A stretch of DNA of 64,000 bases from an uncultured bacterium (GCA_963843795.1 CAWJLW010000006.1:3050375-3114374); one strand, 5' to 3'; positions 6,433 through 62,691 are shown, numbered from the stretch's first letter. The notes: a model not told the origin generated them from the sequence alone. Numbers and translations are program-made.

Positions 6433-6532
6433 AACCTCATTTTAACACTCAATCGCCGATAAGAAATTCGATTTAGCAAAGAAAACTGCCGCTGCAGGTA
6501 CTTGCAGCGGCAGTTTTCCTTGCCAGCAGATA

Positions 6533-6577
6533 AAAAAACTCGCCGCCGTCCGGCTGAGAACCGGGTGAGGCGGCGAG
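6533..6577 (-). terminator. Intrinsic terminator-like hairpin upstream of radA
   Basis: Minus strand ACTCGCCGCC...GGCGGCGAGT followed by a T-run. Confidence 0.6.
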
Positions 6578-7028
6578 TCCGGACGAATCCGGGAGGAAAT
6601 GCAAGCGCGAAGCCTACGGGGAAATTCCCGCTGTGGTGTTCTGCATCTCATTTGCGTAGCACGGCAAGTACTTGCGGGATGCGATATCCACTGGCGGTGA
6701 AGGAAAGGTGAGGAATCACCGTAATTTTCAATTATCCAGCTGAGTTTTTAAGCGGTTTTGGGCGACTTCGGTGAACTGAATGTCAAGTCTGCGCTGATGC
6801 GGGGTATATTCATAATCTGCGCTTGCCCCACATCATTTGGCGATACAAAGATTTTGCGCGGTGAGCGTTTCCAGCGTGTTTCGTCGCGATGTACACGGCG
6901 TGTGTTTCGGGTAAAAGTTTTGTGAAGGCCCGAAAACGTTTCTAAAAGGCTCCTGCAACGAGGACCCAAACATCGTGCCGAATGATAAGATAAAGACCCT
7001 AATTTTGAAGATGTGGCGGAGGAGATTT

Positions 7029-10000
7029 ATGCCTGGTCAGGTTCGGATGAAAGCGTGTTTTGCCTTGTTGAGCGCACTGTTATTGACATGGTGCGGCTCA
7101 CAAGCCCCGGTCGCAAAAGCCCAAACTGTGCCCGCGTTATTGGAAGCGGCTCCAGAAAACGCGGCGCGCGACCTCAATCGCGAGCAGAAACAACAGTTGG
7201 GCGAACTGGCGCGCGTGCGTCTGGCTCAAATTCAACTGGGCACTCTGGCCGCTAATTCGCGCTTGAGCTTGCAGTTGTTTAGCACCACCGTTGTCGCAGT
7301 GCGCAGTGAACTGCAGCAAAATGCCGATGGCGTCCTGTGGCAGGGCGCGATTGCAGGCGATAAGTATTCGAGCGTCACACTTTCGGAAAGCAAAGGCCAG
7401 GTACGTGGCACAATTTACAGCGCAAGCGGCAATTTCACCATTCAACCGCTGCGCGTGAGCGGCGCCAGCGGATTGGCCGCCCGCGCGAGCGGTAGAAATT
7501 TGGTTGCGCTGGGCGAAAACGAAAAACGCTCGCAGCGGGCCGACGACATGGTTTATCCGCAGATAAGCAGTTTTCAGGCGCGCTCGCCATACACAGGACG
7601 CGCAGGCGAAGATGGCAACACCGTCGATATGATGGTGGTTTATGACCGCATCGCCGCTCGCGATGCACCCGACATCGTCGCACAAATTCAGCTAGCCATC
7701 GACGACGCTAACAAGCGTTTTACCAACAGCGAGTCGGTGGCGCGCGTGCGTTTGGTGCACACGCAGATGGTCGAGTATGATGGCGCGGGCGACTTGACGG
7801 TCGATTTACCACGCCTGCGCGATCCTAACGATGGCTTCATGGACGAAGTGGCCGGTTTGCGCGACGAATATGGCGCCGATCTGGTGTTTTTAGTTTCTGG
7901 CGCTAACGACCCGCAATATGGCGGATTGGCTTATGTCATGGGCCAAGGCTTGGTCGGGCCACAATTTGAAAGCGCGGCTTTTGGCACCGTTACGTTGCGC
8001 GACCTGGTTTTCGCGTTCGCTCACGAAATCGGCCACAATCTTGGTTCTTCGCACGATCGCGTTACCAGCCCTAACGCGACACCGGCGTTTCCTTATTCGT
8101 TCGGCTATAGCAACGCGGCCAAAGGTTTTTACACGACGATGTCGTATTCGACCGAGTGTGATAACGCCAACGCGACCTGCCGGGTTATTCCTTTCTTTTC
8201 CAACCCTGACCTGACTTTCAACGACGCGCCCATCGGCGTGGCTGAAGGCGATGCCGCCGCTGCGGACAATCGCAAAACGTTCGCGACCACGGCGGGCATC
8301 GCGGCGGCTTTCCGTCAATCGCGCGCTACCATCAACGTCGAAGACTTTTCGGCCCCCGAAGGCAGCGACAAAACTAACACTTTTTCGGTTCCCATCAGCC
8401 GCACCCAACCGCTGGGCAAGCAATTGAGCATTCCTTATCGTTTTGAAGAAGGAACTGCCAAAGCGGGTGCCGATTACAATGCGACGCCTGGAATTGTGAG
8501 CTTCCTGCCCGATCAGGAAGTGGCCACTATCGAAATTCCCATTGTGGCCGACGACAAATACGAACCGGATGAGAACTTCACGCTTATCATTGGTGCCGAA
8601 GACAGCACGCAGATTCTTGAACAGAAAAGCGTGACTATCACGATTGTCAACGACGACCAACCGCAAATTTCCATCAACGATGCCAGCGTCACCGAAGGCA
8701 ACACTCTCGATACGCCCAAGCTGCCATTCTTGATTTTCGATTTGCAATTGGATGCCGCTTTCGACCAACCGATTAGCGTCGATTATCGCACCGTAACCGG
8801 CACTGCGACGGATGAAGATTTCACCGAGCAGAGCGGAACCATCACATTTGCCGCCGGCCAAACCGTCGCCGCGATCACCGTCGCCGTCACGCCCGATACA
8901 AAAGTCGAGGCCGATGAGAAGATGACGGTGGAACTGGGCAATCCGGTTGGTGCCGCACTGAGCAATGCCAGCGCGACCGGTACTATTATCAACGATGATT
9001 TGCCCGGTTTGCGCGCCGAAGAAATTAAAGTGCGCGAAGGCGGCATCGCCACGTTCAACGTGCGCTTATTGCAACCGTCGCCTTCAACGGTGAAAGTCCG
9101 TTATGCGACTGGCAATGGCACCGCCGCTTCGCCCAACGATTACAACGCCGTCAGCGGCGTTTTGACCTTCACACCGGGCCAGACAACGCAGCAAGTACTT
9201 GTGCGCACTAACGAGGACACGCAGTTCGAAGACGACGAAACCTTCTTTCTGCGCTTTGGCAGCGTGCAGGACGCAACTGTGGTCACGCCCGCAGTGAAAG
9301 CTACGATCATCGACAATGAAAGCAAAGCAACCTTACAGGTCGGCGATGCGCGCGTTGTGGAAGGCAACAGCGGACAAACAATTCTGAGCTTTCCGGTGCG
9401 CTTGTCCAGCGCTTCGCCGGTCGCTATCGCGTTCCGCTACGAAACTCAGAACGGCACCGCGCTGGCGGGCAGCGATTACGAAGCGACCAGCGGCATTTTC
9501 CGCATGGATTCGGGCCAGACAACGGGCCGCATTCAAGTGCGCGTTAATGGCGATGTGGAAATTGAAAGCAACGAAAGTTTCCGCCTGCTGCTTTTAACGC
9601 CGAACAAAGTGCGCTTGTCGAAAGAGTTTGCGACTGGCATTATTCTCACCGATGACATTGACAATACGCCACCGCGCGTGATGCTGAACGACATCGCATC
9701 GAATCAGGGATTCAAAGAATTTCCAACTTTCACCGGCATCGCACAAGACGAAAGCGGCCTAGCTGGAGTCGTGTTGCAATTGCAGCGCGTTTCGGATGGT
9801 GCGGTGTTCAATGGCACCACGTTCGTGCGTCCGCAACTCGGCATCACGCTCGCCACGACCCTACAAATCATCGGTAAATTGCCTTCGGGTATCGGTCAAG
9901 TCGGTCGTTTCACGGTTTCCGATTCGCTTCCCAGCGGCACCGAGGTGAAAGAAGGCGAATATCTGGTGCTGGCGACAGCGGGCGACACTTCGGGCTTGCG

Positions 10001-10379
10001 TGGAGAAGCGCGCGCTAAATTCATTATCGACCGCACCGCACCACTTTTGTCGATTATTGCGCCCGCCAACCGTCGCGTGCTCCAATCGCTGAGCACAATT
10101 GCTGGTCGCGTCAGCGATGAAGTTTCGGGCGTTGCCCGCGTCGAAGTGGTGCTCCAACGCAACAGCGACGGCGCTTATTGGAACGGCGCGCAGTATGTCG
10201 GTGAGCGCACTCTGCTGCCGACCCGCATTCAGAACACGACGTGGATTTTGGCCGCCCCGCTGCCACGCTTTACCGATGGCACTTACACCGTCACCGCCAT
10301 CGCGACCGATCGCGCTGGCAACACGAGCGAGAAAACCAACGTCGTCAACTTCAGCGGCACCAATTCCAGTGGCACCTAA
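7029..10379 (+). CDS. Secreted metzincin (reprolysin/M12-like) protease with about four Calx-beta and two Ig-like domains
   Basis: GGAGGAG RBS before ATG 7029; signal peptide; HEIGHNLGSSH zinc motif with Met-turn TTMSY; repeated GTAxxxxDY...F..G.T....V.V..D...E.DE motifs; DNTPP and DRTAP Ig-like starts. Confidence 0.85.
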   Translation: MPGQVRMKACFALLSALLLTWCGSQAPVAKAQTVPALLEAAPENAARDLNREQKQQLGELARVRLAQIQLGTLAANSRLSLQLFSTTVVAVRSELQQNADGVLWQGAIAGDKYSSVTLSESKGQVRGTIYSASGNFTIQPLRVSGASGLAARASGRNLVALGENEKRSQRADDMVYPQISSFQARSPYTGRAGEDGNTVDMMVVYDRIAARDAPDIVAQIQLAIDDANKRFTNSESVARVRLVHTQMVEYDGAGDLTVDLPRLRDPNDGFMDEVAGLRDEYGADLVFLVSGANDPQYGGLAYVMGQGLVGPQFESAAFGTVTLRDLVFAFAHEIGHNLGSSHDRVTSPNATPAFPYSFGYSNAAKGFYTTMSYSTECDNANATCRVIPFFSNPDLTFNDAPIGVAEGDAAAADNRKTFATTAGIAAAFRQSRATINVEDFSAPEGSDKTNTFSVPISRTQPLGKQLSIPYRFEEGTAKAGADYNATPGIVSFLPDQEVATIEIPIVADDKYEPDENFTLIIGAEDSTQILEQKSVTITIVNDDQPQISINDASVTEGNTLDTPKLPFLIFDLQLDAAFDQPISVDYRTVTGTATDEDFTEQSGTITFAAGQTVAAITVAVTPDTKVEADEKMTVELGNPVGAALSNASATGTIINDDLPGLRAEEIKVREGGIATFNVRLLQPSPSTVKVRYATGNGTAASPNDYNAVSGVLTFTPGQTTQQVLVRTNEDTQFEDDETFFLRFGSVQDATVVTPAVKATIIDNESKATLQVGDARVVEGNSGQTILSFPVRLSSASPVAIAFRYETQNGTALAGSDYEATSGIFRMDSGQTTGRIQVRVNGDVEIESNESFRLLLLTPNKVRLSKEFATGIILTDDIDNTPPRVMLNDIASNQGFKEFPTFTGIAQDESGLAGVVLQLQRVSDGAVFNGTTFVRPQLGITLATTLQIIGKLPSGIGQVGRFTVSDSLPSGTEVKEGEYLVLATAGDTSGLRGEARAKFIIDRTAPLLSIIAPANRRVLQSLSTIAGRVSDEVSGVARVEVVLQRNSDGAYWNGAQYVGERTLLPTRIQNTTWILAAPLPRFTDGTYTVTAIATDRAGNTSEKTNVVNFSGTNSSGT

Positions 10380-10388
10380 TTGTTTCCG

Positions 10389-10446
10389 AAGTAGATAAAA
10401 GAAAACGGCCCGCAATTACTTGCGGGCCGTTTTCTTTTATCTACTT
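10389..10446. terminator. Hairpin with 27-bp arms centred on the variant palindrome GCAATTACTTGC; probable bidirectional terminator
   Basis: Perfect arms AAGTAGATAAAAGAAAACGGCCCGCAA / TTGCGGGCCGTTTTCTTTTATCTACTT between convergent genes. Confidence 0.7.
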
Positions 10447-10491
10447 TCGCGTTTCACGAGGTGGCAAGTACTTGCCTACGCACATTGCGTT

Positions 10492-10866
10492 TTAGAACAA
10501 TGCTTCTTCGGCTTCTTCGCCCCAGCCGCGATACGTTCCATCATCGACGCACGAATGGGCGGATTGCATTTTCAGGAAGTTCTCGGAATATCGATCATTA
10601 GCAACGAATTCCAGCCAGTGCGCGCGTTCGTTTTCCGGCAGTTTTTGCGTGAACAAAGAAACCGAACTGTGCAGAAAATTTTCGTCCGGTGCGATGCCAA
10701 AATCGAAGCTCCACGCCGCACTTTTGATTCGCCCCACCGAATTGGTGCGCGAAACCGTGAAGTTTTTGTCGTTCAGATATTTATCCAAAACCGCGACTTG
10801 AAATTCGAGCTGCGCGAGTTCGGGGCGAGTGAGAATTTTTTTGGTAAAAGTTCCAGCAATATTCAT
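10492..10866 (-). CDS. Hypothetical protein
   Basis: 124-aa ORF from ATG 10866 filling the gap downstream of the sulfurtransferase; no recognisable motif. Confidence 0.5.
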   Translation of the reverse strand: MNIAGTFTKKILTRPELAQLEFQVAVLDKYLNDKNFTVSRTNSVGRIKSAAWSFDFGIAPDENFLHSSVSLFTQKLPENERAHWLEFVANDRYSENFLKMQSAHSCVDDGTYRGWGEEAEEALF

Positions 10867-10961
10867 AATTTTAAAATTCAAAGCAAAATTTTGGCCCCTG
10901 CAAGTACTTGCAGGGGCCAAAACGGCTTTGCAAGTACTTGCAAAGCGAAATCAAGCAACGG

Positions 10962-11816
10962 CTACGGCTTTTCGATAGGCACGCCCACCATCGAGCCATA
11001 TTCCGTCCAGCTGCCATCGTAATTTTTCACGTTTTCGTAGCCCAGCAAATATTTCAGCACGAACCAGGTGTGGCTCGAACGCTCGCCGATGCGGCAATAC
11101 GCAATCGTATTTTTGCCGTCTTCGATGCCCTTGTTGCCATACAATTCGCGCAGTTGATCGGCGGGCTTGAAAGTGCCGTCTTCGTTCACGGTTTGTGCCC
11201 AAGGAATGTTTTTCGCGGTTGGGATGTGGCCGCCGCGCTGTGCGGTTTCGGTCATTCCCGGAGGCGCGATCACTTCGCCGGTGTATTCCGCCGGTGAACG
11301 CACATCGACCAATTGCGATTCCTGCGATTCGACGTTTTTCAGCATTTCGGTGACATTCGCGCGCAGAGACAAATCGGCTTCTTTGGCCTGATAAGTCGCG
11401 GGAGTGGGATTTTCTTCCTGAGTGGTGAGTGCGCGGCCATCCGAAACCCATTTTTTGCGTCCGCCGTCCATCAAGCGAATGTCTTCGTGGCCATACATTT
11501 TCAAAATCCAGAACGCGAAAGCTGCGAACCAGTTGTTGTTGTCGCCGTAAAGAATGATAGTGTCGTCGTTGGAAATGCCGCTTTCGCCCAGAAGTTTTTC
11601 AATTTGTTCGCGCGAAGGAATGTCGCGACGGATTTGATCGTTCAATTGCGAAGTCCAGTTCCACGACACCGCGCCTGCGATGTGGCCTTCGTCGTAAGCG
11701 TCGGTATCGACATCAACTTCAACCAGTTTCACTTTTTCGTCATCTTTGTGTTGCTCGACCCAATCGGCATCGACCAGCACGTCCGGCACTGTATAACCTT
11801 TGTCTGTAACTGCCAT
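10962..11816 (-). CDS. Thiosulfate sulfurtransferase (double rhodanese, CysA/SseA-like)
   Basis: YDEGHIAGA, DVRSPAEYTG, GGHIPTA, AYCRIGERS, NYDGSWTEY; GGAGG RBS. Confidence 0.93.
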   Translation of the reverse strand: MAVTDKGYTVPDVLVDADWVEQHKDDEKVKLVEVDVDTDAYDEGHIAGAVSWNWTSQLNDQIRRDIPSREQIEKLLGESGISNDDTIILYGDNNNWFAAFAFWILKMYGHEDIRLMDGGRKKWVSDGRALTTQEENPTPATYQAKEADLSLRANVTEMLKNVESQESQLVDVRSPAEYTGEVIAPPGMTETAQRGGHIPTAKNIPWAQTVNEDGTFKPADQLRELYGNKGIEDGKNTIAYCRIGERSSHTWFVLKYLLGYENVKNYDGSWTEYGSMVGVPIEKP

Positions 11817-12070
11817 AATTTGCCTCCGTTTTTGTGTGCGATGCCCATTATAACGCACCGCTCCAGATAATCCCACCTCTCGTATAGGATTTAATGCCGA
11901 ACGCCCATTTTGCCTTGCCGAGCCATTCCTTTTGCGGCGCTGCTTTTGCATGGTGGCCACAAGCGTTGTTGCAACTCGGCTTGAACTTTATCGGGCCATT
12001 GGACGTTTAAAAGCTGTTGAAACGCTGTGAGCAGAACGTGAAAGCGGCTCGCAGTCAAGGAGAAAAGATT

Positions 12071-13381
12071 ATGAACGCCTTCAAAAACAAATCTCGAAAA
12101 TCTTATTGGACAGCGAAATTTGCCGCTCTGGCTGCGTGCGCTGGAACCATGACGCTGAGTGTCGCGCCGGCTCGTGCCGGCTTGTTTTCATTGAGCGAAA
12201 AAGATGAAATTGCGGCTGGTCGCGAGGCAGCAGCGCAAGCACAGAAAGAATACGGGCGCGCTTTGCCCGCCAGTGACCCGATGTCGCGGCGTGTGAACTC
12301 AATCGGACAAAAGTTTGCGCGCCTATCAACGCGCAAAAACATTCCCTACACTTACACCGTGCTGCAAAACGACAAAGTTCTGAACGCTTTTGCCGCACCC
12401 GGCGGCCCAGTTTTTGTGACCACTCGTTTGGTGCAGACCACTGCTAACGATGCCGAACTGGCTTACGTTTTGGGCCATGAGACCGCGCACATCGAGCGCC
12501 GCCATATCGCTCAGTCGGTCGAAAAGCAGCAAAAAGTTGGTCTGGGCATCGGTATTTTAGGCGCGATTCTGGGAAAAGGAAAAAGCGGTAACATTCTGGG
12601 CACCGCGCTCAACGCGACCTTTGCTGTATGGCAGAGCGGCTATTCGCGCGATCAGGAAAGCGAAGCCGATGCGGTCGGCGTGCGCTTTATGAGCCAGTTG
12701 GGTTACGATCCGCGCGCGGCCTCGACGATGCTGGCGAAGTTGGGCGATGGCGGCGGCGGTTTTCTGGACAAGTATCTTGCCACCCATCCCGACCCCAATA
12801 CGCGTATCAAGCGCGTCAACGAGCAGATCGCCAAAGAAAATCTGATCGATGTCGCCCGGCGCAGCGGCGGCCCGCGTTTGAGCGATGCCAGCAACAACGG
12901 CTACCGTTATTCAAATACCAACTACGCGGCCAATAATAACGTGAGCGACAATTACCCCGATTATGGCACATCCAACGGTAGCCCGTCTTACAGTTCGGGC
13001 AGTTCAGTTAACAATGGCGGACGAGAAATTTCTTTGGAAGCGCCATTGCGTGCTGTAGATTTTGGCAATGGTAGCGTACTGTTGGCCGCCGTAACCGACA
13101 TTGCGCGCTGGGCCGGTGCTCGCCTCACCACAAAAGGCACGGTCCTAACCCTAACACGGCCCGGTCACACCTTGGAACTGCGTCGTAATTCGACAGTGGC
13201 GTGGGATAACGGCAAGCGTCGCGATCTCAATGTCGCGGTGCGCACCTATGACGGCAAAACTTATGCGCCGCTGGGCGACTTGGTCGAAGGCTTGGGCGGG
13301 CGGGCGCGTTATGATAACGCTACCAATTCAGCGCGCATCACGCTGGATAATGGCCCCGAAGATTCGATTACAATGCGCTAA
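12071..13381 (+). CDS. M48 family zinc metalloprotease with C-terminal copper-amine-oxidase-N-like (stalk) domain
   Basis: NAFAAPGG, LGHETAH, YSRDQESEAD, YLATHP; signal peptide; AAGGAG RBS. Confidence 0.88.
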   Translation: MNAFKNKSRKSYWTAKFAALAACAGTMTLSVAPARAGLFSLSEKDEIAAGREAAAQAQKEYGRALPASDPMSRRVNSIGQKFARLSTRKNIPYTYTVLQNDKVLNAFAAPGGPVFVTTRLVQTTANDAELAYVLGHETAHIERRHIAQSVEKQQKVGLGIGILGAILGKGKSGNILGTALNATFAVWQSGYSRDQESEADAVGVRFMSQLGYDPRAASTMLAKLGDGGGGFLDKYLATHPDPNTRIKRVNEQIAKENLIDVARRSGGPRLSDASNNGYRYSNTNYAANNNVSDNYPDYGTSNGSPSYSSGSSVNNGGREISLEAPLRAVDFGNGSVLLAAVTDIARWAGARLTTKGTVLTLTRPGHTLELRRNSTVAWDNGKRRDLNVAVRTYDGKTYAPLGDLVEGLGGRARYDNATNSARITLDNGPEDSITMR

Positions 13382-13570
13382 TCGCACGCGAAATTAAGGC
13401 TGCAAGTACTTATCCTTGTCCTTGCAATTCATAAAAGCCCGCTGCAAGTACTTGCAGCGGGCTTCTGGCTTCTATCTCCAAAATTGGCCATAACGAGTAA
13501 GCTATTCAGTAACAAATTAAGACTATTTTCTGGTGCGGGCAGAGCGCGATTGGCTTGTAGGGAGCGAGTT

Positions 13571-13587
13571 TTCTCAGCGAGTTCTCA
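13571..13587 (+). promoter_or_regulatory. TTCTCA-N5-TTCTCA direct repeat (putative OmpR-family operator)
   Basis: Half-sites at 13571 and 13582, about 55 bp before the ArnT-like start; the same box recurs at 18012, 19038 and 20030. Confidence 0.6.
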
Positions 13588-13639
13588 GGTTCCTCGAAGT
13601 GGCGCGCGTCATAATCAGCTAGCATCCTCCAAAACATTT

Positions 13640-15322
13640 ATGGAAATTTCGACTTCGGCCGCCGCAACTCCAATTATTGCCGCGCCCTCCACCACACGTT
13701 CTAACAGCACGATTTGCATAGCATGTTTCGCCGCTGCGATTGTGGCGGTTTATCTGGGCACCATTGGCAGCCTGCCTCTGCTAGGCAAAGATGAGCCGCG
13801 CTATGTCGAAGTGGCGCGCGAAATGTGGTTGCGCGGGGATTGGGTCACGCCGACTTTGAACCAGCTCACCTGGTTTGAAAAACCGGCGCTTTTGTATTGG
13901 CTCATCATAGCGAGCTTCAAAGCGTTTGGCGTTGCGGAGTGGACGGCGCGCTTAGGCCCGGCGCTGTGCGGATTGGCAACCGTTGCACTGGTTTTCTGGA
14001 TGACAAGCCGCGTCGAAGCGCACTCGGAAAATTCGCAGGGTCTGGCTCGCTGGAGCGCACTTGCAATGTCATCATGTATTGGCCTCATCGCGTTTTCGCA
14101 TGGCGCGACTTTCGACATCGTTTTGACCGCTACCATTACGCTGGCGCTGGCGTGTTTCTTCGCATCTGAGTTGGAAACGACTAGGCATAAACGCAACTGG
14201 CTGCTGGCAGGTTTGTGGGTTGGAGTGGGCTTATCGTTGCTGGCCAAAGGCTTGGTGGGAATTATTCTGCCGGGCGGCGTAGTCGGGGTTTACCTAGTTT
14301 TGCGACGCGACTGGAGCGGTTTTAAGCGCGTGCAACTGCTGTGGGGCGTGCCATTGGCGCTGGCCGTCGCGGCGGTCTGGTATGGGCCGGTTATCGCGCG
14401 GCACGGTCAGGTTTTCATTAACGAGTTTTTTATTCAGCATCACTTCGCGCGCTTCTTTTCCAACAAATATCAACACGCGCAGCCATTGTATTATTATTTG
14501 CCCGTCATGGCGCTTTTCGCGCTTCCATGGACCGCTTTTCTGCTGACTTCGCTGTGGGAAAACGCGCCCGCAAAGTGGCGCTCTGACGATGCAGAAAGCA
14601 AATTGCGCGTCTTTGCCCTTTCGTGGTTTTTGGTGCCGACAGTTTTCTTTTCGCTTTCCGATTCTAAATTGCCCGGCTATATCATGCCCGCTCTACCCGG
14701 TGCTCTACTTTTGGTCGGATTGAGCGTGGCGGCCTATGTGCGCGGTCAAAGCGGAACTGGACGCGCGCGCGTTACCGGCGCGCTACTGTGCATTTTGGGA
14801 ATCGGTGCCACGATTTACGCGCAGCATTCGCACACAATGTCCAATCACGCCATTGCTGCGGTCGTTTTGCCCTTGTTCGGCGCGGGCCTGCTGGCGCTGA
14901 TAATGGCGCATAAACGTGGGCTGTGCGCCGGAGCGATTGGCGGCGCGATTTTGCTGGCGAGCGGAATGTTAGCGGGCAAAGCGGGCGTGCCATTGAGCGA
15001 AAAGCGCAGTGTGCGCGAAATGTTGAATTCGACCGCTGCGCGCCAGTATGCGCAGGAGCCGGTCTGGCAATTGAAAACTACCCAGCGCACTGCGGAATTT
15101 TATGCGGCGGGCCGCTTGAAATACGATTCCAACGGCGAACCGCACGAATACCAAAACGTGGCCGACATCGCGCGCGATTTGCCGCGCAATGGCGGAATTT
15201 TGCTACTGGCTCCAATCGATCAAATGCCCGCGCTCGTCGTATCGCCCCTGCTGCAAATTCAGCCCCTGGCCGAAGATAGTCGCATCGGCCTGGTGCGTGT
15301 AAAGGCCGAAGTAAGGCCATAA
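13640..15322 (+). CDS. ArnT/PMT-like (GT-C) undecaprenyl-sugar transferase
   Basis: DEPRYxEVAREM, WVTPTLN...FEKPxLxYW, LAKG, SKLPGYIMP; polytopic membrane protein. Confidence 0.88.
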   Translation: MEISTSAAATPIIAAPSTTRSNSTICIACFAAAIVAVYLGTIGSLPLLGKDEPRYVEVAREMWLRGDWVTPTLNQLTWFEKPALLYWLIIASFKAFGVAEWTARLGPALCGLATVALVFWMTSRVEAHSENSQGLARWSALAMSSCIGLIAFSHGATFDIVLTATITLALACFFASELETTRHKRNWLLAGLWVGVGLSLLAKGLVGIILPGGVVGVYLVLRRDWSGFKRVQLLWGVPLALAVAAVWYGPVIARHGQVFINEFFIQHHFARFFSNKYQHAQPLYYYLPVMALFALPWTAFLLTSLWENAPAKWRSDDAESKLRVFALSWFLVPTVFFSLSDSKLPGYIMPALPGALLLVGLSVAAYVRGQSGTGRARVTGALLCILGIGATIYAQHSHTMSNHAIAAVVLPLFGAGLLALIMAHKRGLCAGAIGGAILLASGMLAGKAGVPLSEKRSVREMLNSTAARQYAQEPVWQLKTTQRTAEFYAAGRLKYDSNGEPHEYQNVADIARDLPRNGGILLLAPIDQMPALVVSPLLQIQPLAEDSRIGLVRVKAEVRP

Positions 15323-15354
15323 AGAATACAGCCTTGAGACAAAGCCGTCACGCC

Positions 15355-16374: not shown

Positions 16375-16526
16375 AAATGTCAATTCAAGAAAATGAAGCT
16401 GTGGGAACCCGTTGGACTCGCCATCGTGCAACGCCGCGTGAAGCCGGAAACTTTCAAAGGAAAAAATCGGCTTTGCGGCAAGGTTTGCGGCACTGATGTC
16501 GTGGTTTTTTTCGGGGGCAGAGAAGT

Positions 16527-40963: not shown

Positions 40964-40974
40964 AAAGTGAGATA

Positions 40975-53217: not shown

Positions 53218-53328
53218 TCGCAGCCCTCCCAAGCAACCCATCATATTTTGGTGAAACCTTTTGCAGTGAAAACCCACGAAATGGGTAGATAAATAGAAAG
53301 CGGCGATTGCAAAGCACGCTTTTTTGTC

Positions 53329-55485
53329 ATGTGCATTTTCTTTTCTTCTTCCCGCCGCCGCAAGCACCTGCAAGGCTTGGCACAGCAATTTGCCGCGTCG
53401 CAAGTACTTGCCCTTGCTTTGTTCACTTCGTTGGCTGTTCCCGCTCACGCGCAGAGCGCGAGTGCGCCCGACGCATGGGATGAAGCCACGATTGAAACAC
53501 AAATTGAGCGCGGCGATTCGCTTTTCAACGCTTACGATAAACGCGCCTTGCCAATAATTGCAGCAGCTTCGCGCGCTTCCCTTGATGCCCTGAGTGCCAA
53601 TAACGGCGCGAATTTGCTGACCGCTCCACCCGAACGGATGCCGCAAAACGGACCGCTGGCCGCTCTAACAATGCGCGCGGCGCGGGCGCACTTGTTGTGG
53701 GGCCGCGCCGCCGACCGTTTCGCCCAGCGCGATATTTCAATTATGGCTTTGGCGCGCGCTTATCGTTTGGCCGGCGTCAACTTCAACGGCACCAACACCG
53801 TTTCGCGCGATGCGCTGCGTTTATTGAACGCGCAACTGCGTTTGGGCTTGCCGCAGTTTGCTGCCGATGACACCATTGACACGCTTTCAGCACTCGGGCT
53901 GTGGAAACCTCTACGCTTTGGTTTCGCCCTTCCAAACAATGCGCTGGGACCGGGACAAAATAGCGCGCGCAACGTCGATTTGATGATTACGCAGGGCCAA
54001 CTTTTTCCCCCGGAAAAACTCGAAGCGCGCGCAGATGATGACAAAACTCGATTGGCGCCTTTATATCGCAATGTTTCGCCCGATGTGCTGCCGCCAGTTT
54101 TAAAATTGGGTTACATGACGGTTGGTTTCGAGCGTTTGAGCGATGGCCCGAATCGTGGATTGTGGCAGCAGACAGCGCGCGTTTACTATCCGCACTCGCT
54201 CTTCACTCGTGACAACCGCAACGACCGACCGCGCGCCGAAGCCTTGTGTACGCAATTTCTGCGCGTGCGTGCGCTCTGCCGCTACGCGCTGGGATTGGAA
54301 AACAACTACAAAACCGATGGCGTGACCGAGCTTTGGCTTTCAGAAGTTTCCGCGCTGTGGCCCGACGATGATGACGACCTTGAAATGGCCGATTTGCGCG
54401 GCGCTCGTATGCCGCCAGTCAACATCCACGCGCCCGAAAATTTGCCGCCCTCAATCGAACCGTTGCCACTGCGCGCGCCGTGGATGGCGGCGGGACAAAT
54501 CGACAGCGCGCCCGGCGACATCGTGTTTTTCAAAACGGGTCAATCGCGCAGCGAATGGGAATGGCTGCGCGAAATCGCTCACGAATACGGCCACGTCATT
54601 TTGCCGCCCGCTGCGGGTTTTCGTCCGCCACTGGAACCTTATGGCAATGGCGCGCTGGGCGAAACGCTGGCGATGCTGTGGCTCGCGCCCAATGCGACTT
54701 CTTATGAACTCGCCAATATTCTCAAAACTAACACCAGCGCGCCGCGCATCGCAAATATTTCCCCCATCGCCGCGCTGCCGCGTGCGCCTGGGGCGGCGAA
54801 TCCGGCGAACGAGCCACAACCCGTTTGGAATAATTCGCCGCAAGCGATGACATCCGAAGCGCTGGGGCACATTCGCCAGAACGCGCTGCCCGCACTGCGT
54901 TTGTGGAACGCGCAAGGGCCAAATTCGCCGCTGCGCCGTGACACGAGTGTGGCGGGGCTGAATTATTTTCAAGGCTTTGGCGTATGGATCGAACGCGTTT
55001 ATGGCGGCGATATTCTGGGCGCGAGCGCACAAAATTCCTTGCAGCGCACCGTCAATTCCTACGCCTACGATGCGCGTATGACGCCAACTAACACGGAAAA
55101 TTTCCTCAACGATTTTCAGAACTTCATGAAGTCGCTGTGGACAACGCGCAAAGTTTTGCCTTTATGGCTACCGGGCGCGCTGGAAAGCGTGCCGACCTCT
55201 TTACCCGCCGAACAGCTGGCGGCTCGCGCACCGCTCACCTTGCAAAAAGGCGCGCGCGTCGCGCTACGATTTTATGTACCGCCCAACACTGCTCGCCTGA
55301 CTTTGCAGTGGCGTGGCAAAAACGGTACTTTGAAAATCGACGGTTTGAATACGCGCCCCGCACGCGCCACTAGCAGCGAGTTGAGCGCCGCGAGCTTCGA
55401 TTTCACGCAAAATGGCTGGCAGCGTTTGGTGCTGAGCGCAACCGATAACGCGACTTTGATGGGCGCAAGCCTGGAGGCGCGTTGA
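53329..55485 (+). CDS. Secreted hypothetical protein with HExxH zinc-metallopeptidase motif
   Basis: Signal-like AVPAHA; EIAHEYGHVIL followed by a downstream Glu (LGETL). Start uncertain. Confidence 0.65.
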   Translation: MCIFFSSSRRRKHLQGLAQQFAASQVLALALFTSLAVPAHAQSASAPDAWDEATIETQIERGDSLFNAYDKRALPIIAAASRASLDALSANNGANLLTAPPERMPQNGPLAALTMRAARAHLLWGRAADRFAQRDISIMALARAYRLAGVNFNGTNTVSRDALRLLNAQLRLGLPQFAADDTIDTLSALGLWKPLRFGFALPNNALGPGQNSARNVDLMITQGQLFPPEKLEARADDDKTRLAPLYRNVSPDVLPPVLKLGYMTVGFERLSDGPNRGLWQQTARVYYPHSLFTRDNRNDRPRAEALCTQFLRVRALCRYALGLENNYKTDGVTELWLSEVSALWPDDDDDLEMADLRGARMPPVNIHAPENLPPSIEPLPLRAPWMAAGQIDSAPGDIVFFKTGQSRSEWEWLREIAHEYGHVILPPAAGFRPPLEPYGNGALGETLAMLWLAPNATSYELANILKTNTSAPRIANISPIAALPRAPGAANPANEPQPVWNNSPQAMTSEALGHIRQNALPALRLWNAQGPNSPLRRDTSVAGLNYFQGFGVWIERVYGGDILGASAQNSLQRTVNSYAYDARMTPTNTENFLNDFQNFMKSLWTTRKVLPLWLPGALESVPTSLPAEQLAARAPLTLQKGARVALRFYVPPNTARLTLQWRGKNGTLKIDGLNTRPARATSSELSAASFDFTQNGWQRLVLSATDNATLMGASLEAR

Positions 55486-55763
55486 ATTTCGTTTCGCGCA
55501 TAGGGTAAGTGAAATTCGCACTTGGCAAGTACTTGCAGGCCTTAAACTCCTTTTACTGCGTTCTCTGAGAAACGTTTGCGCTTTCCGGGCGAAACGCACA
55601 AGAGTTGCGATAATGTGGTGGCTTCTTTATACTGCTCTGGCTGTGCGAAGTGCAACCTGTTGACTTGTGCTTCGTATATTCTTGGTTGCTGCAAAAGCGT
55701 TGCAATTACTTGCAGAGCCTTTGCCCGCCAGTTATTTAATAAAAATTGAGGAAATTGACCATT

Positions 55764-56018
55764 ATGAAACCAGAAATTCATCCCGAATACATTCCCGCCG
55801 AAATTTCGTGCACTTCGTGCGGCACCGTCGTGAAAACTCACGCCACTGTGCCTTCGATTCGCGTCGATTTGTGCTCCAACTGCCATCCCTTCTACACCGG
55901 CAAGCAGCGCATTGTCGATACCGCCGGTCGCGTTGACCGCTTCAACCAGCGTCGCGCTGCGGGCGACAAAGCGCAAAAAGCAGCCAAAAAGCGCGAGAAG
56001 GCCGACGCCGCTTCGTAG
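55764..56018 (+). CDS. rpmE: 50S ribosomal protein L31 (zinc-binding type)
   Basis: [32 protein letters not shown]. Confidence 0.96.
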
Positions 56019-56029
56019 ATAACCTTCCC

Positions 56030-56072
56030 AAACGGCGCAACGCGAACCCCCATTCGCGTTGCGCCGTTTTTT
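56030..56072 (+). terminator. Intrinsic terminator after rpmE
   Basis: AAACGGCGCAACGCGAA-loop-TTCGCGTTGCGCCGTTT plus T-tract. Confidence 0.8.
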
Positions 56073-56133
56073 GTTTTGTCCGTGCCGTCGTAGCGCACAC
56101 TTTGCAATTTTCGATTTTTCAGCGAGGCTTTTT

Positions 56134-57171
56134 GTGTCCAGTGATTCACCCAATTATTCGGCTTTGAATGGCGCGCCGATTGCGTCCAATGTCGCGCCGC
56201 CCGAAATGCAGTTGGGTGGGCAAGCTTTGGTCGAAGGCGTCATGATGCGCTCGCCCAAATATGTGGGTGCTGCGGTGCGACGCGCCGATGGACACATCGA
56301 AACCCGCGTCGAGCGCTTTGAACCCATCGCGCGTCGCATCCCTTTTTTCGGTTGGCCGTTCGTGCGCGGCGTAGTCGGCATGGTCGAAATGGTTTCTCTC
56401 GGCTCGCGCTACCTCAACTGGTCGAGCGAACTCGCGCTGCAAGACGATCCCGAATATCAGGCCAAACAAGCGAAAAAGAGTGTGGATGGCGCGCCACTCA
56501 AAGACGAAAAAGCCATGCCCGCCGCCACGTTCGCCTTGACGGCGTTAATTTCGTTTGGCTTCGGTTTTCTTTTGTTCGTCGCTTTGCCCAACTTACTGGC
56601 GGATTTAGTTCTGGAACGATTCACGTCCAATGTGGCGTTGCTCAATCTGGGTGAAGGACTTATCAAACTGGCGATTTTCATCGGCTATCTTGTGTTGATT
56701 GGGCGCATGAAAAACATCCGGCGCGTTTTTGAATATCACGGCGCCGAACACAAAGTCGTTTACGCCGCAGAAAATGGACGACCTTTAACACCCGATGGCG
56801 CGCGACCTTTCGACACGCCGCATCCGCGTTGCGGAACCGGCTTCGCGCTTTTGACGGTCGTGGTCAGCATTTTTTGCTTCGTGTTTTTGCCGTGGACGCA
56901 AGCGCATTGGCCGCGCGTGCTGATGCGTTTGGCGATGATGCCAGTTGTAGCGGGCGTGTCGTATGAAATTTTAAAATTGTCTTCGCACGCGCGCTGGCGT
57001 AAAGCGGCTTTGGTTTTTCTGACACCGGGAATGTGGCTGCAACGCTTGACCACGCGCCAGCCTGACGATGCCCAATTGGAAGTTTCGTGCGCCGCAATGC
57101 GCGCCGTCATCGCGATGGAAACCAATGCGCCCGCCCCGCACCTCGAAAGTCCCGAAACCGAAATTGTTTAA
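56134..57171 (+). CDS. DUF1385 family membrane protein
   Basis: GGQALVEGVMMR, FEYHGAEHK, HPRCGTGF, LQRLTT; usual neighbour of rpmE and prfA. Start uncertain. Confidence 0.88.
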   Translation: MSSDSPNYSALNGAPIASNVAPPEMQLGGQALVEGVMMRSPKYVGAAVRRADGHIETRVERFEPIARRIPFFGWPFVRGVVGMVEMVSLGSRYLNWSSELALQDDPEYQAKQAKKSVDGAPLKDEKAMPAATFALTALISFGFGFLLFVALPNLLADLVLERFTSNVALLNLGEGLIKLAIFIGYLVLIGRMKNIRRVFEYHGAEHKVVYAAENGRPLTPDGARPFDTPHPRCGTGFALLTVVVSIFCFVFLPWTQAHWPRVLMRLAMMPVVAGVSYEILKLSSHARWRKAALVFLTPGMWLQRLTTRQPDDAQLEVSCAAMRAVIAMETNAPAPHLESPETEIV

Positions 57172-57226
57172 AATCGCGCTGCCCGTACGGCTGCAAGTAC
57201 CTGCAGCCGTACGGGCAGCGCGATTT
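57171..57226. repeat. 56-bp palindrome centred on the variant GCAAGTACCTGC
   Basis: AAATCGCGCTGCCCGTACGGCT-core-AGCCGTACGGGCAGCGCGATTT between co-directional genes. Confidence 0.85.
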
Positions 57227-57260
57227 CACTGTCTCAATCTGAACTTATAAAGGTCGCAAG

Positions 57261-58445
57261 ATGAAACGATTTTCGATGCCAAAAATGCACTTTGCCGTCG
57301 CGTGTTGCGCCCTTGCTATCAGTGCATCGAATGGCCAAGCCGCGCCAGCCCAAATTAGCGCCCCGACCAGCCTTCAGCCGCATAGCGAAACAATTTTTTA
57401 CAGCGCGCGTTACTATTCGCCGCCCGGTTCGGGCGCAAATAGCCGCCAACATTTGTATTCCGTCGCGACAAATGGCAGTCAGCGCCGACAATTAACTGCG
57501 GGGCGCTTTCAGGAAGAAGCACCGCGCATTTCTCCCGATGGTCGCACCTTGGCGTTCGAGCGCCTTCACGACGATTACAGCGTCGATGTTTGCACACTCG
57601 ATTTGGCGACCAAACGCGTAAAAGTTGTGCTGCCCGCTGCGTTCAAAGACGCGTATATCAGCAAATTGGGATGGGCGCCGCAAAGTAACACGCTCGCAAT
57701 TCAGCGCGATAGCGAAGGCAATTCGGCGTTGTATCTGGTTGATTTCTCATCAGTCGAAAACCGACGTTTTTCGGGCCTTCTCAATTGGGCGTGGCGTCCA
57801 CAAAGCGCGCAACTTCGTCTCACCGATAGCAAAAACACGCGTTTATTCAACGTAGTTTCTCATCAGGAAACCAAATTACCGTCCGCGCTGGCCACTGCGA
57901 TTTGGCTCAATCGCGATGAGTGCGCGCGCATTACAAACCAACCCAATTTACCCAGTAGCGACAGCTACGATGCCAGCATCAAAAGCGTGGATATTCTCAA
58001 TCTGCAAGGCAAAATAGTGCGCAGCGTCGCGCCGCAAAAAGTCAGTGGTCTGAGAAAAATGGGCAACGATAACGCGGGCATGGACGGCGAAGAGGTCGAA
58101 TTCGACAGTCGCTCGATGCTGATGCCGATTCCGCGACATAACAGCGATTTGATGCTCGTCGCCGACGAACATACTAGTAGCGGCGGGAACTACGCGTTCA
58201 CGCGTTTCAATTCCAAAACAGGCCAAACGCGATTCTTAGCGCGCGGCAGGCGCTTGAGTTGGGCACGCGATGCCAAACGTTTCGCCCTTGTCGATTATCA
58301 CGATACGCTGCCTTACGACACGCTGCCCAACGGACATAAGCGCGTGGTTTACACGACACGCTTGCTAATCAGCGACAGCAAAGGCGCGCTGCGACCTTTG
58401 GTTTCAGGTCTGGTTTTGGTCGGCGATTGCGATTGGAATCGCTAA
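57261..58445 (+). CDS. Secreted TolB-like (PD40) beta-propeller protein
   Basis: Signal peptide; RQLT...[30 protein letters not shown] repeats. Confidence 0.75.
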
Positions 58446-58515
58446 AGCAGAAAACAGCATTGCAAGTACTTGCAACGCTTCTCAGTCACTTTTCAAGCCA
58501 CTTTCAAAAATAAAA

Positions 58516-59586
58516 ATGCAAACTTCTCTACTTGAAAAAGCTCTTTCGATTGTCGCGCGCTTCGATGAACTGACCGCGCAACTTTCCGATCCAAAAATTC
58601 TGGAAGATTTGTCCGATCTCAAGCGCGTCGGCAAAGAGCGCGCGCGGCTGGAGCCAACCGCGAGTGCCGCGCAGCGCGTCGTTGAACTCAACGCTTCTCT
58701 CACCGAAGCGCGGGCGATGCAGGACGACAGCGAAATGGGCGAACTGGCGCAAATGGAACTCGCCGAACTCGAACCGCAACTCGAAGCCGCGCAAACCGCG
58801 CTGGAAGAAGCTTTACTTCCGCGCGATGAAGACGCCGACCGCAACGTGATCGTCGAGATTCGTCAGGGCACCGGTGGCGAAGAAGCCGCGCTGTGGGCGG
58901 GCGATTTGTGGCGGATGTATAGCCGCTATGCCGAAACGCGCGGCTGGAAAACCGAATCGATTTCTCTCAGCGAAGCCGAAATGGGCGGCGTGAAAGAAGT
59001 TGTCTTTTCCATCGCGGGCAAAGGCGCGTGGGAAGCCTTGCAAAGCGAAAGCGGCGTGCATCGCGTGCAGCGCGTGCCCGCGACTGAACAAAAAGGCCGC
59101 ATTCACACCAGCGCCGCAACTGTCGCGGTTTTGCCTGAAGCCGAAGAAGTCGATATCGAATTGGATGAAAACGATATCGAAATGGAAACTATGCGTGCGA
59201 GCGGTGCGGGCGGCCAAAGCGTGCAGAAAAACGAAACTGCGGTGCGCCTGATTCACAGGCCCACCGGACTGATTGTCACCTGCCAGGACGAGCGCAGTTT
59301 GCGCCAGAACAAGGAAAAAGCGATGCGAGTTTTACGCTCGCGCTTATACGAAGCCGAACGCCAGCGCCAGGCCGACGAACGCGATGAAACGCGGCGCGCG
59401 CAGGTGAAAAGCGGCGACCGCTCGGACAAAATCCGTACCTATAACTTCCCCGAAAACCGCGTTACCGATCATCGCATCAATTGGAAAAGCAACGCTTTAG
59501 ATCAACTCGTCGCGGGCCGTCTGGACGATTTATTCGCCGCCCTGATTCAAGACCGCCGCGCGCAAATGTTGCAAGACGCGCAGTAA
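58516..59586 (+). CDS. prfA: Peptide chain release factor 1
   Basis: [22 protein letters not shown] (RF1 PxT motif), GGQ, IRTYNFP. Confidence 0.96.
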
Positions 59587-59677
59587 AATCTAAAGAAGGC
59601 GCTGCAAGTACTTGCAGCGCCTTTTTTCTTCATTAAAATTCAGCGAAATGGCATCGCATTGGCTTATGGCCCGTGTC

Positions 59678-60808
59678 ATGTCCAAATCTCAAACTCCCAC
59701 GGTCAAAGACATTCCCGAAATCAAGCCCGATCCCGCACAATCGGCCAAAGAAGCTGGTCTGCGTTATGTTTCCGATGATCGTCCCGGTATCACGCGGCGC
59801 AAGAGCGGACGCGGTTTTTCTTATCGCGATACTGACGACCACATTATCCGCGACAAGAAAACTTTGGAGCGCATCAAAGCCTTGGCGATTCCACCGGCTT
59901 ATACACAAGTGTGGATTTGCCCGCATCCCAAAGGTCACATTCAAGCGACGGGTTTGGACGAGCGCGGACGCAAGCAGTATCGCTATCACCCAAAATGGCG
60001 TGAAGTGCGCGACGAGGCCAAATACGCCCGCACGATGGCGTTTGGACGCGCGCTGCCTTTAATCCGCGAGCGCACGCAAAATGATTTGCGCAAGCACGGT
60101 TTGCCGCGCGAGAAAGTGCTCGCCGCAATTGTGCAACTGTTAGAAAAAACCGCAATTCGCGTCGGCAACGAAGAATATGCCAAAACCAACAAATCGTATG
60201 GGCTGACCACGCTGCGCAACAAACACGTCGAAATCGAGGGCAAAAATGTGCATTTCCATTTCAAGGGCAAATCGAACAAAGTGCACGACATCGATTTGGA
60301 AGACCCAAAACTGGCGAAAATCGTCGCTCAATTACAAGAATTACCGGGCCAACATTTGTTCCAATATCTGGACGAAAATGATGAACGACAGGAAATTGGC
60401 TCGGACGATGTGAATACGTATCTGCAAGAAATCACCGGCCAGCCGTTCACCGCCAAAGATTTTCGGACGTGGACGGGAACAATTTTAGCCGCCTTAGCGC
60501 TGCGCGAATTTGAGAAGTTCGATTCGGAAACTCAGGCCAAGAAAAACATCGTCGCTGCCATTGAAAGTGTCGCCGAACGTTTGGGCAACACGCCGACAAT
60601 TTGCCGCCAATGTTACGTGCATCCGGCGATTTTGGATTCGTATCTCGATGGCTCGATGCTGGAAAGCTTGCAGCAAAATGCACAAGAAGAATGGCAGGAT
60701 GCGTTACAACAATTGCCACCCGAAGAAGCCGCCGTCATGGCACTTTTGCAAAGCAAGTTGTCAGGCGCAAGCGCGAAGCATGGTGTGATTTTCAAGCCTA
60801 AATCATAA
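59678..60808 (+). CDS. DNA topoisomerase IB (poxvirus-like bacterial type)
   Basis: LAIPPAY, GRKQYRYH, IRVGNEEY, FKGKS, AKDFRTW, LGNTP..C..CYVHP (catalytic Tyr). Confidence 0.93.
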   Translation: MSKSQTPTVKDIPEIKPDPAQSAKEAGLRYVSDDRPGITRRKSGRGFSYRDTDDHIIRDKKTLERIKALAIPPAYTQVWICPHPKGHIQATGLDERGRKQYRYHPKWREVRDEAKYARTMAFGRALPLIRERTQNDLRKHGLPREKVLAAIVQLLEKTAIRVGNEEYAKTNKSYGLTTLRNKHVEIEGKNVHFHFKGKSNKVHDIDLEDPKLAKIVAQLQELPGQHLFQYLDENDERQEIGSDDVNTYLQEITGQPFTAKDFRTWTGTILAALALREFEKFDSETQAKKNIVAAIESVAERLGNTPTICRQCYVHPAILDSYLDGSMLESLQQNAQEEWQDALQQLPPEEAAVMALLQSKLSGASAKHGVIFKPKS

Positions 60809-60855
60809 ATCTCTGCCAGAGACTAGCAAGACAATCGCAACTATTGCAAAACCAA

Positions 60856-60885
60856 AAACCGCCACAGCATTTGCTGTGGCGGTTT
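60856..60885. terminator. Bidirectional terminator hairpin
   Basis: AAACCGCCACAGCA-TT-TGCTGTGGCGGTTT between convergent genes. Confidence 0.7.
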
Positions 60886-60919
60886 CGTTTTCATCTCTGC
60901 AAGTACTTGCAGCGTAGTT

Positions 60920-62548
60920 TTAGCGTTCGCCTTGCGCGGGAAAGTCTTGCGCGGGTTCATTCGGCGAAACCGTCGCGGTAATCGGGCCGCCAGTTGGTTC
61001 AGCTTGCGTAGGCAGCGCGGCTTGTCCGGGTTCGGTAGCACGCAGCATTTCAGGTGTGATTTCTGGGTCGGCAGTGTAAGCAGAATCAAGCAAAACGTCC
61101 AAAACACCCGCCGCGCGTGCGGCATCTACGGCTTTGTGTGTAATGAGGTCGCCAGTGTTGAGAATCACGTTGTCGCCTTTATCCAAAATCACGCGTGTAG
61201 TTGGGCGGCCTAATGCATCGTTGATACGCTTTTGCTGGGCTTGCGCATCGTAGGCTTCTTTTTTGTCGTGCGCCGATTCGCTCAACTCATGGGCCTTTTC
61301 CTTCACGGTGTCCCACAAATTGCCCGCGCCTTCTTTCACAGTTTGCGCGCCGCTCGACACGCTTTCGCTGGCCGCGCCCAGACCGGCTGCGGCGATAACC
61401 TGATTTTCTTTACCTTCGCGTTTAGCACGATCCATTGCTTCTTGCGTAACGATCATTCCGGGCGTGACGATAATCGAGCCATCGTCGGAAGTAACTTCAC
61501 GCGCCACAGGTTTGCCAATTGCGGCTGCTTCGGCGCGCGATTGGGCGTTGCCGCCGTGTTCGCCCGCCAAGTCGCCGACGCGCTCTTTGCTCGAATCGTA
61601 AGCGCCCACGACGGTGCCGCCGCCGGCGGCCAGAACCAGGCTGCCCAGAATGTCGGCGGCAATCGCGCGATCGGCGTGTTCAGCGGTAATAGTTTCGCCC
61701 TTGCGCACTAACACCGCGCCATCGACCGGTTCGCCACTGGAAGAAACATCGGTACTGCCCGCCATCGTCGGTGTGTTCAGTTCCAGAATTTCGCTGTCGC
61801 TCACCATACCGCCGCTTTCTAACTCGCTAGTCGCGGCCAGTTCGGGCGAAGTTTTTTCAGCAGGAATAATCACATCGTGCGAAGATGTTCTGCCGATGAC
61901 AAATTCGCGCTGCTTCTCGACTGAAGCACTGGCGATGTTGGAGTAGGTTTCACTGACTTTATCGGCAGCTGTCGCATACGTTTCGCTGACCGCACCCGCG
62001 GCACTCGCAGTTGCGCCTTTGAGGCCGCCCGGCTCTTCTGCTTTCTGCTTTTCCATCTGGGTTCCCACTTCGGGCGGCACCAAAGCGATGTCTTCGCCCA
62101 GGGTGAAGCTTTCGGGAACGGGCATATAATGACGGCCCGACATCGCATCCGAGAACAGACCGCCCGAGACTTCGTAACCAACGATGTTGCCGTCATTATC
62201 GAAGTAAATGTCGGAAAAAGTGCCTAAATCTTTGCCATCTGTGGTGTGAATCGGACGACCGACCAGCGTGTTTTCGCCTTCCAACTCTTCAGCGATTCGC
62301 GGATCATCGTGCGCTTTAATCAAAGCATCACGCCCGCTCACCATCACATCGTCTTTGCCGATCACACGCACAGCTTCCCAAGGCACGACCTGAGCATCTA
62401 TTAAACCAAACAATTCTTTTTCCGAAACCAACAAGCCCAGTACACGGCTAGTTTCATAATCGAAAATAAGTGTTCTGACTGCACCTAAATCGGCTCCATC
62501 CGACTGACCGATCACTTTTAAGCCCGACATTGATTTACCTTTACGCAT
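60920..62548 (-). CDS. PRC-barrel domain protein
   Basis: Two N-terminal PRC barrels ([34 protein letters not shown]); AAGGAG RBS. Confidence 0.8.
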
Positions 62549-62691
62549 AATTTTCTCCTTTTAGAATCGTGTTTCTCTACTTTCTCAACAGCTTTTTAAA
62601 TAGTTATCTGGTGCGTTGTATTAGTTGATTGTTATGTCTTCTAAAGCCACAACAGCCAAACGCCCTGCAAGTACTTGCAGGGCGTTTAGAA

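Follow-up and report, generated by a model that had tools for sequence, protein, structure and literature searches.

Two groups of described systems are among the closest to the element analysed here, a 12-base palindrome centred on GTAC (GCAAGTACTTGC; the core, or tag) that recurs in a 64,000-nt stretch of DNA from an uncultured bacterium of the Abditibacteriaceae (CAWJLW010000006.1:3050375-3114374; the window, with positions counted from its first base) and across the genome to which it belongs (G000, 4.3 Mb). The DNA uptake sequences (DUS) of Neisseriaceae and the uptake signal sequences (USS) of Pasteurellaceae are, in the available parts of the published accounts (PMC1852404, PMC3630211, PMC2817400), short words in thousands of copies, with dialects round a shared centre, frame-biased copies in coding DNA, absence from foreign DNA and an extended flank consensus with A/T tracts, and 55% of terminators in Neisseria carry the uptake word (PMC1852404, in part). 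HIP1 of cyanobacteria (GCGATCGC) is a palindromic word with lineage-specific variants and extensions, at 300–2,700 copies per Mb (PMC4390886, Table 2), and is linked to an orphan DNA methyltransferase (PMC4390886, PMC13756078; both in part); the available part of PMC4390886 does not contain the word ‘terminator’.

With 2,567 perfect copies (597 per Mb) G000 shows each of the DUS/USS traits listed above, together with a DUS/USS-like excess of perfect over one-mismatch copies (506), and, as in Neisseria, the word is present at roughly one operon-end terminator in two (48% of convergent gaps here, 55% there; PMC1852404, in part). However, in the parts of those sources available DUS and USS are asymmetric and placed as an inverted pair in the stem, whereas G000 places a single palindromic copy at the tip (pairs are used in one relative, G006). 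Phylum and sequence also differ, and uptake through the tag and a receptor for it would be putative. The tag resembles HIP1 in its palindromic form, density, lineage-specific variants and extensions, and in the presence of an orphan DNA methyltransferase in all carriers, but it is 12 bp long, centred on GTAC rather than GATC, lies ~70% outside genes and takes over terminators (compared with HIP1 as given in the same partial sources), and the methyltransferase gene is also found in most core-free relatives. The G000 case parallels the way in which uptake sequences take over terminators in Neisseria and Pasteurellaceae, with a palindrome in single copy as the word. Word co-option into terminators and the perfection of arms by template switching are known; no description of a single centred palindromic tag, of this core or of a tag family in this group was found in the literature covered, which left out subscription journals and supplements.

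All 16 long palindromes that the original prediction had placed in the window are inverted repeats with the core, or a variant of it with one mismatch, at the centre. Twelve have no mismatch, and in four (6481, 10389, 20540 and 57171) there is a single one, always inside the core. The accompanying claim that most have no unpaired loop is true of the DNA but not of the RNA, where folding (-20 to -53 kcal/mol) leaves a 4-nt loop in 15, mostly GUAC, and a 6-nt loop in one. Genome-wide, a perfect palindrome of at least 30 bp is centred on 477 of 2,563 scored cores, while the arm-length comparison proposed with the prediction, shuffling flanks among cores, gives 3.8 with a half-length of at least 15 bp. 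Of the 620 perfect palindromes of at least 24 bp in G000, 565 are core-centred, the longest having 78 bp (arms of up to 39 bp). Half-lengths are bimodal (peaks at 6–9 and 16–18 bp), and long arms are a minority trait: about four in five cores lack them, and in the window (cores at 289..62687) they are found at 12 of 41 perfect cores, the other 29 being short-armed and located in genes or spacers. Arms were thought to be unrelated between loci, but they share a consensus (AG-C/G-GCGC-TTT) and 53 of 497 long arms start with AGCGCGCT, although 354 distinct 11-mers are present. The preferred flanks of the core are GC-rich, then T-rich, and each symmetric double variant of it is rare (0–4 copies). 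In some hairpins two cores or part-cores face each other 0–12 nt apart (116 near-stop cases in G000), and at a metagenome locus a tandem array of about five cores is present in the hairpin behind the orthologue of C10:153807.

Position relative to genes (3,410 genes, 85% coding, called with a purpose-written script) points to transcription termination. The 560 cores with arms of at least 14 bp are distributed over convergent gaps (201), tandem gaps (321), divergent gaps (26), coding DNA (9) and contig edges (3); among gaps of at least 30 nt, a long core palindrome is found in 193/399 convergent, 321/1,997 tandem and 25/448 divergent gaps (Fisher P = 3e-49). The palindrome centre is a median of 29–34 nt from the stop codon, and T-tracts flank 177/183 long palindromes in convergent gaps and 217/233 in near-stop tandem gaps. 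For tandem gaps, T is the first unpaired base downstream in 141/321 cases and upstream in 84/321 (P = 0.012), while convergent gaps have no such bias, and mismatched pairs read on the transcript are more often G-U (95) than A-C (66). From stop proximity, T-tracts, enrichment in convergent gaps and RNA fold, we infer a terminator function, and long core palindromes are likely intrinsic, often two-way, terminators with the tag as tip, in agreement with the suggestion that the palindromes serve as terminators where A/T tracts are present.

The tag itself is spread evenly over G000 (mean 12.5 and variance 10.5 per 20 kb) and is absent from insertion sequence (IS)-, restriction- and conjugation-type islands. 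Coding copies (n = 761) have a strong frame bias (503/143/115), and 564 of 946 Q-V-L tripeptides (60%, against 0.4% expected) are encoded by CAAGTACTT. In same-dialect relatives 32/57 and 29/59 coding cores are conserved in position, while none of 31 is kept in core-free relatives, where 26 of the 31 orthologues align without a nearby gap. By these alignments the core has been written by substitution wherever tolerated, in genes and spacers alike. Six viral contigs match a 16-mer, each with a single core, apparently by chance, and phages as bearers of the tag were rejected. Short spacings between neighbouring cores on contig C6 appear to cluster at about 12–13, 20–21, 29–30, 39–41, 51 and 62 bp, approximately one helical turn apart, although counts are small.

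Outside G000 the exact core is present in 0–3 copies in each of 60 other genomes, but 6 of 30 relatives have GTAC-containing dialects of their own. The nearest relatives are 62–70% identical to G000. RAGTACTY has 2,695–4,371 copies in G000, G001, G009, G012, G015 and G019 and 0–396 in the remaining 25 genomes from the class; the dialect words are CAAAGTACTTTG in G001, TCGAGTACTCGA in G009 and G015 and a looser CGAGTACTCG form in G012. G006 has an asymmetric half-site, GTACRGTCGA, with 1,613 and 1,649 copies on the two strands (3,262 in total) and no more than 16 in any of the other 30 genomes; of 203 copies sampled 136 have a close partner, as a rule in inverted orientation, with tails of A and T and behind genes, the unit being a 23–24 bp palindromic inverted pair. 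Metagenome contigs ~70% identical to G000 use its own dialect. In two such sets a hairpin lies behind 26/60 and 32/70 orthologues of genes with a centred hairpin in G000, compared with 13/108 and 9/111 where G000 has none, and in G006 behind 13/19 where G000 has a centred core, compared with 12/37 where it has none. The nearest named relatives of G000 PrfA are from Abditibacteriaceae (70–76% identity), and in a PrfA tree the carriers are not gathered in a single supported clade: G006 groups with the core-free genus g2 (support 94/93) and deeper forks are unsupported. G009 also has a second long repeated hairpin, with arms of 30–44 bp (TTTGTCATTCTGAG...GAAGAATCT), behind many genes and unrelated to the tag.

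Arm symmetry had been attributed to a process that copies one local flank onto the other around the core. Some arm-to-arm copying is likely, but at any palindrome. With the core left out, mismatched pairs amount to 3.1% in 646 core-centred and 3.2% in 247 core-free near-stop hairpins, core arms thus being no more symmetric than those of core-free hairpins, which is the result named with the prediction as counting against it. A perfect mirror of at least 5 bp past the T-tract is seen in 56/317 core-centred and 21/139 core-free hairpins of G000 and in 8/51 hairpins of relatives without the core (1.03 Mb), or about one in six (16%) of T-tract hairpins, with a level tail reaching beyond 20 bp; a spacer of 0–1 nt is found in 33/139 core-free hairpins of G000 and 13/51 of core-free relatives. 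At 614 cores deep in genes, mirroring of rare 4-base flanks is seen 16 times (3.7 expected), and at 900 other 12-bp palindromes there 18 times (4.3 expected). Because core-centred and core-free palindromes do not differ in mismatch rate, in extension past the T-tract or in mirror excess within genes, copying appears to be generic and not core-directed. Four orthologous hairpins of two metagenome sets (32 shared genes) contain 41 unchanged pairs, seven mirrored double changes and one single change; the double changes fit copying or compensation alike. None of 26 paralogous pairs in G000 checked for fresh copying was informative, and no event was seen.

Template-switch correction of quasi-palindromes has been described for Proteobacteria (PMC5941160, in the part available), and the hairpins of G000 resemble that case in that perfect inverted repeats are in excess, the more so the longer the arms, and in mirrored multi-base differences between orthologues. 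They differ from it in their thousands of identical 12–16 bp seeds supplied by a genomic tag, without a higher in-gene copying rate per core seed. G000 has 26.8 strong hairpins per 100 kb and core-free samples have 2.5–15.3, and for this reason the core probably seeds some of those in G000; no special enzyme would be needed, since the core is a ready 12–16 bp palindrome with GC-rich, then T-rich flanks. Counter-selection of long palindromes through cruciforms and SbcCD, raised with the prediction, is of no help in explaining them: sbcD stands next to an SMC-like partner gene in G000 (sbcD-like matches in 28/31 genomes), which led to rejection of SbcCD loss as the cause of palindrome survival, and the longest core palindrome is as given above. 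Palindromes of 28–78 bp would probably be too short for lethality.

The explanation considered probable is that the terminators are tipped by a 12-base palindromic tag, that the tag is spread by a reader and that the arms are perfected by generic template switching. The tag is written by substitution in genes and spacers, with relatives using other GTAC-containing dialects, and some protein would read it and drive its spread, most likely for recognition of self-DNA as in DUS/USS or HIP1. By geometry, a single palindromic tag can be accommodated in a hairpin at the centre alone, supplying the last four pairs and the GUAC loop there, whereas an asymmetric tag has to occur twice (as in Neisseria and G006). 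Ordinary template switching, acting on any strong inverted repeat in the family, would then perfect and sometimes extend the arms, selection would retain hairpins that follow stop codons and end in T's, and, with its flanks (GC-rich, then T's), the tag would readily seed new terminators.

An unlikely alternative is core-directed copying, in which a protein makes a nick at the core or stalls there, the strand then folding back on itself and one flank being copied onto the other, the terminators being survivors of this process. It would account for the core at the centre of 565 of 620 long perfect palindromes, for the surplus of long arms in divergent gaps and genes and at sites without T-tracts, for a hairpin density about twice or more that of core-free relatives, for the commonness of the double-core hairpins and for the many hairpins without a counterpart in distant relatives, but core-free hairpins are equally perfect and long, also in core-free genomes, and non-core 12-bp palindromes in genes have the same 4-fold mirror excess. 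Nor does it fit the four in five cores without long arms, the scarcity of symmetric double core variants, the building of the same terminators from an asymmetric half-site in G006 or the lack of a fresh event in the 26 paralogous pairs. Selection on RNA structure alone, with arms kept complementary by single compensatory changes and no copying, appears quite improbable. Terminator-like position, T-tracts and G-U bias agree with it and the mirrored changes between orthologues fit compensation equally well, yet G-U makes up only about 2% of hairpin pairs, the mirror excess extends inside genes and ~16% of T-tract hairpins are perfect for at least 5 bp past the T-tract, with the tail to over 20 bp. 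Termination is not known to depend on perfect pairing that far past the T-tract.

Repetitive extragenic palindromic (REP) repeats are short, hairpin-forming, with copy numbers in the hundreds, and mostly extragenic. Ssn-NTS repeats are described in the same terms in the available part of PMC11893778, and the long palindromes of G000 resemble them in this. A short mobile palindrome of ~34 bp (REP, miniature inverted-repeat transposable element or Ssn type), which a transposase or nuclease had spread and which had since decayed, would fit the shared arm consensus, the same first eight bases in 53 of 497 arms, the mostly extragenic long copies and the 23–24 bp palindromic unit of G006. Such an origin is nevertheless very doubtful given the 761 frame-biased cores in genes and their gap-free alignment to core-free orthologues: unlike REP-RAYT or Ssn-NTS (as described in the part of the source available), the core was written into genes by substitution, and the only Y1 transposase found, RAYT-like, has a different, GTAG-type repeat, while the GIY-YIG matches lie in frames of 672 and 450 aa. 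Fold-back chimeras of the assembly are scarcely credible as a source. Frameshifted genes in the assembly (pilC, pilin, mutS) would be in keeping with errors, but arms do not exceed 39 bp and are tied to stop codons, and like hairpins in the assemblies of relatives largely refute the idea. One contig of public run X1, which may be the sample behind the assembly, bridges the palindrome at 32815-32844 without difference; this contig, together with like hairpins in other assemblies and dialects, argues that the palindromes are not artefactual. Three DNA runs of one study cover the window thinly, with one palindrome bridged, the others uncovered or partial and no differences in those covered.

Several observations weigh against terminators built on a reader-spread tag with generic perfection of arms. 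A simple terminator scan, which counts in-stem T's as pairs, lists 7 of the 16 palindromes of the window and places those at 46868 and 59596 on the strand opposite the upstream gene; the palindrome at 46868 has no T-tract on the strand that is transcribed, and G-U mismatches are favoured only modestly. Long arms exceed shuffled expectation in divergent gaps (22 vs 0.4), in genes (7 vs 0.2, some of them near gene ends) and at the 227 intergenic cores without a T-tract on either side (21 vs 0.2). A palindrome of 14 bp is reached by 492 of 1,803 intergenic cores (27%) but by 27 of 208 other intergenic 12-bp palindromes (13%), a comparison into which terminator selection is mixed. In core-free genomes a hairpin lies behind 11/50 orthologues of genes with centred hairpins in G000 (11/78 where G000 has none), and corresponding values are 10/40 (10/82) for G009, 1/16 (2/27) for G012 and 0/3 (5/24) for G001; with hairpin position weakly or not shared with distant relatives, many hairpins of G000 are young. 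No reader protein was found among the single families tested, pilT, comEC and the pilus operon occurring with and without the tag, and genes were predicted with a home-made caller in an assembly that contains frameshifts.

In the window, 15 of the 16 palindromes are within 53 nt of a stop codon; the one not just after a stop, a 38-bp palindrome with variant core GCAGGTACTTGC (6481..6518), is in a divergent gap upstream of radA. Terminators are predicted at the 58-bp palindrome with a variant core at 10389..10446, 9 nt past the stop of the gene at 6975-10379, and at the 34-bp perfect palindrome at 10889..10922 (- strand), 39 nt past the stop of a sulfurtransferase gene (10962-11960, -) and followed by a second core palindrome of 22 bp (10925-10946). 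On the + strand they are predicted at the 36-bp palindrome with a variant core at 20540..20575, 15 nt past a stop, at the 34-bp perfect palindrome at 24983..25016, which overlaps the stop of 24346-24984 and has a cobalamin riboswitch just downstream, and at the 28-bp perfect palindrome at 59596..59623, 9 nt past the prfA stop and followed by further T's. Three more are predicted to act in both directions: a 58-bp perfect palindrome (28655..28712) that forms the entire gap between the convergent stops of a glycosyltransferase gene and alaS, a 54-bp perfect palindrome (40975..41028) 11 nt past the stop of an SDR oxidoreductase gene and facing - strand genes, and a 32-bp perfect palindrome (45144..45175) between the convergent stops of rodA and a sensor-kinase gene (15 and 23 nt). 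Behind alaS a same-dialect relative has a core-free hairpin with a 4-nt loop.

The remaining palindromes also lie at gene ends. On the + strand these are a 30-bp perfect palindrome at 13435..13464, 53 nt past the stop of an M48 protease gene, with a short T-tract; a 34-bp perfect palindrome at 36475..36508, 21 nt past the stop of 34069-36453; and a 56-bp palindrome with a variant core at 57171..57226, which begins at the stop of 56059-57171 and has a long GC arm and a short T-tract. On the - strand, perfect palindromes are located 19 nt past the stop of an AI-2E transporter gene (32 bp; 31387..31418), 7 nt past that of an aldo-keto reductase gene (30 bp; 32815..32844, the one bridged by the X1 contig) and 4 nt past that of 62692-63180 (30 bp; 62658..62687). 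The 30-bp perfect palindrome at 46868..46897, 14 nt past the stop of a response-regulator gene and before its kinase gene, would be a poor terminator for that operon since A's, not T's, follow on the transcribed (-) strand. Core-free controls in the window are a loopless perfect palindrome of 38 bp (50786..50823), a terminator-like hairpin of 17 pairs with a 6-nt loop (56030..56069, +) and a hairpin between convergent genes that is terminator-like on both strands (60855..60886). Rfam matches in the window are limited to the cobalamin riboswitch (RF00174; 25082-25299, +), directly behind the 24983 palindrome and upstream of a gene for a TonB-dependent B12 receptor; no Rfam family matches the palindromes.

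Candidate readers and movers of the tag were sought among competence, methylation and transposition genes. G000 carries comEC, comEA, dprA, a type IV pilus operon, mutS and sbcCD, but competence genes were rejected as markers of carriers, with pilT and comEC in 31/31 genomes and a pilus operon alike in carriers and non-carriers; pilins also fail to separate the two. The large pilin, pilC and mutS genes of G000 are split by frameshifts (G000:C6:393256-395061, 397725-398699 and 2528642-2531330), likely sequencing indels, and the large pilin is whole in most relatives. An orphan beta-class N6/N4 methyltransferase (G000:C6:2517365-2518135, -) is conserved across Abditibacteriaceae in changing neighbourhoods, but was likewise rejected as a carrier marker, a close orthologue being present in 7/7 carriers and also in most of the family's 20 non-carriers; Abditibacterium utsteinense has the gene as well. 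Neither its solved relatives nor named homologues point to a target or specificity; GTAC is a candidate target. Relative to a control word, GTAC in GC context is at 0.004–0.21 in non-carriers with the methyltransferase, 0.36–0.42 in three without it and 0.16–0.46 in carriers, while G016 and G002 lack the gene yet have low GTAC, and CTAG partly co-varies, such that the association of the methyltransferase with GTAC depletion is a lead only. GTAC is almost erased (0.4–2% of control) in core-free G005, G008, G011, G013, G014, G018, G022, G024 and G026; most GTAC-erased core-free genomes carry the methyltransferase, and G010, G021 and G023, without the gene, are not depleted. The RAYT-like Y1 transposase (G000:C6:751650-752480; C6:751962), possibly interrupted upstream, is flanked by inverted pairs of a GTAG-type REP (~15 genome copies) unrelated to the core and, with 761 cores coding, was rejected as their source. 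No small GIY-YIG gene was found in G000, the two matches lying in the larger open frames noted above.

A bolder version of the proposal, to which little probability is assigned, is an Abditibacteriaceae system for self-recognition through GTAC tags whose reader or methylase also makes the tag a fold-back point, each of ~2,600 tags being able to grow into a terminator; if true, the tag would actively rebuild the operon ends of the genome, a new parallel to DUS, USS and HIP1. To our knowledge, tags at such density are known only from Neisseriaceae, Pasteurellaceae and cyanobacteria. The Abditibacteriaceae would add a fourth group, in another phylum, with both palindromic and asymmetric dialects and with tag-free close kin that are often strongly GTAC-depleted, and may therefore offer an independent test of whether biased DNA uptake or methylation-linked repair drives such words. 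They also suggest a simple rule, that an asymmetric tag occupies both arms of the stem and a palindromic tag its tip, and their thousands of identical seeds may make rates of template switching measurable in nature.

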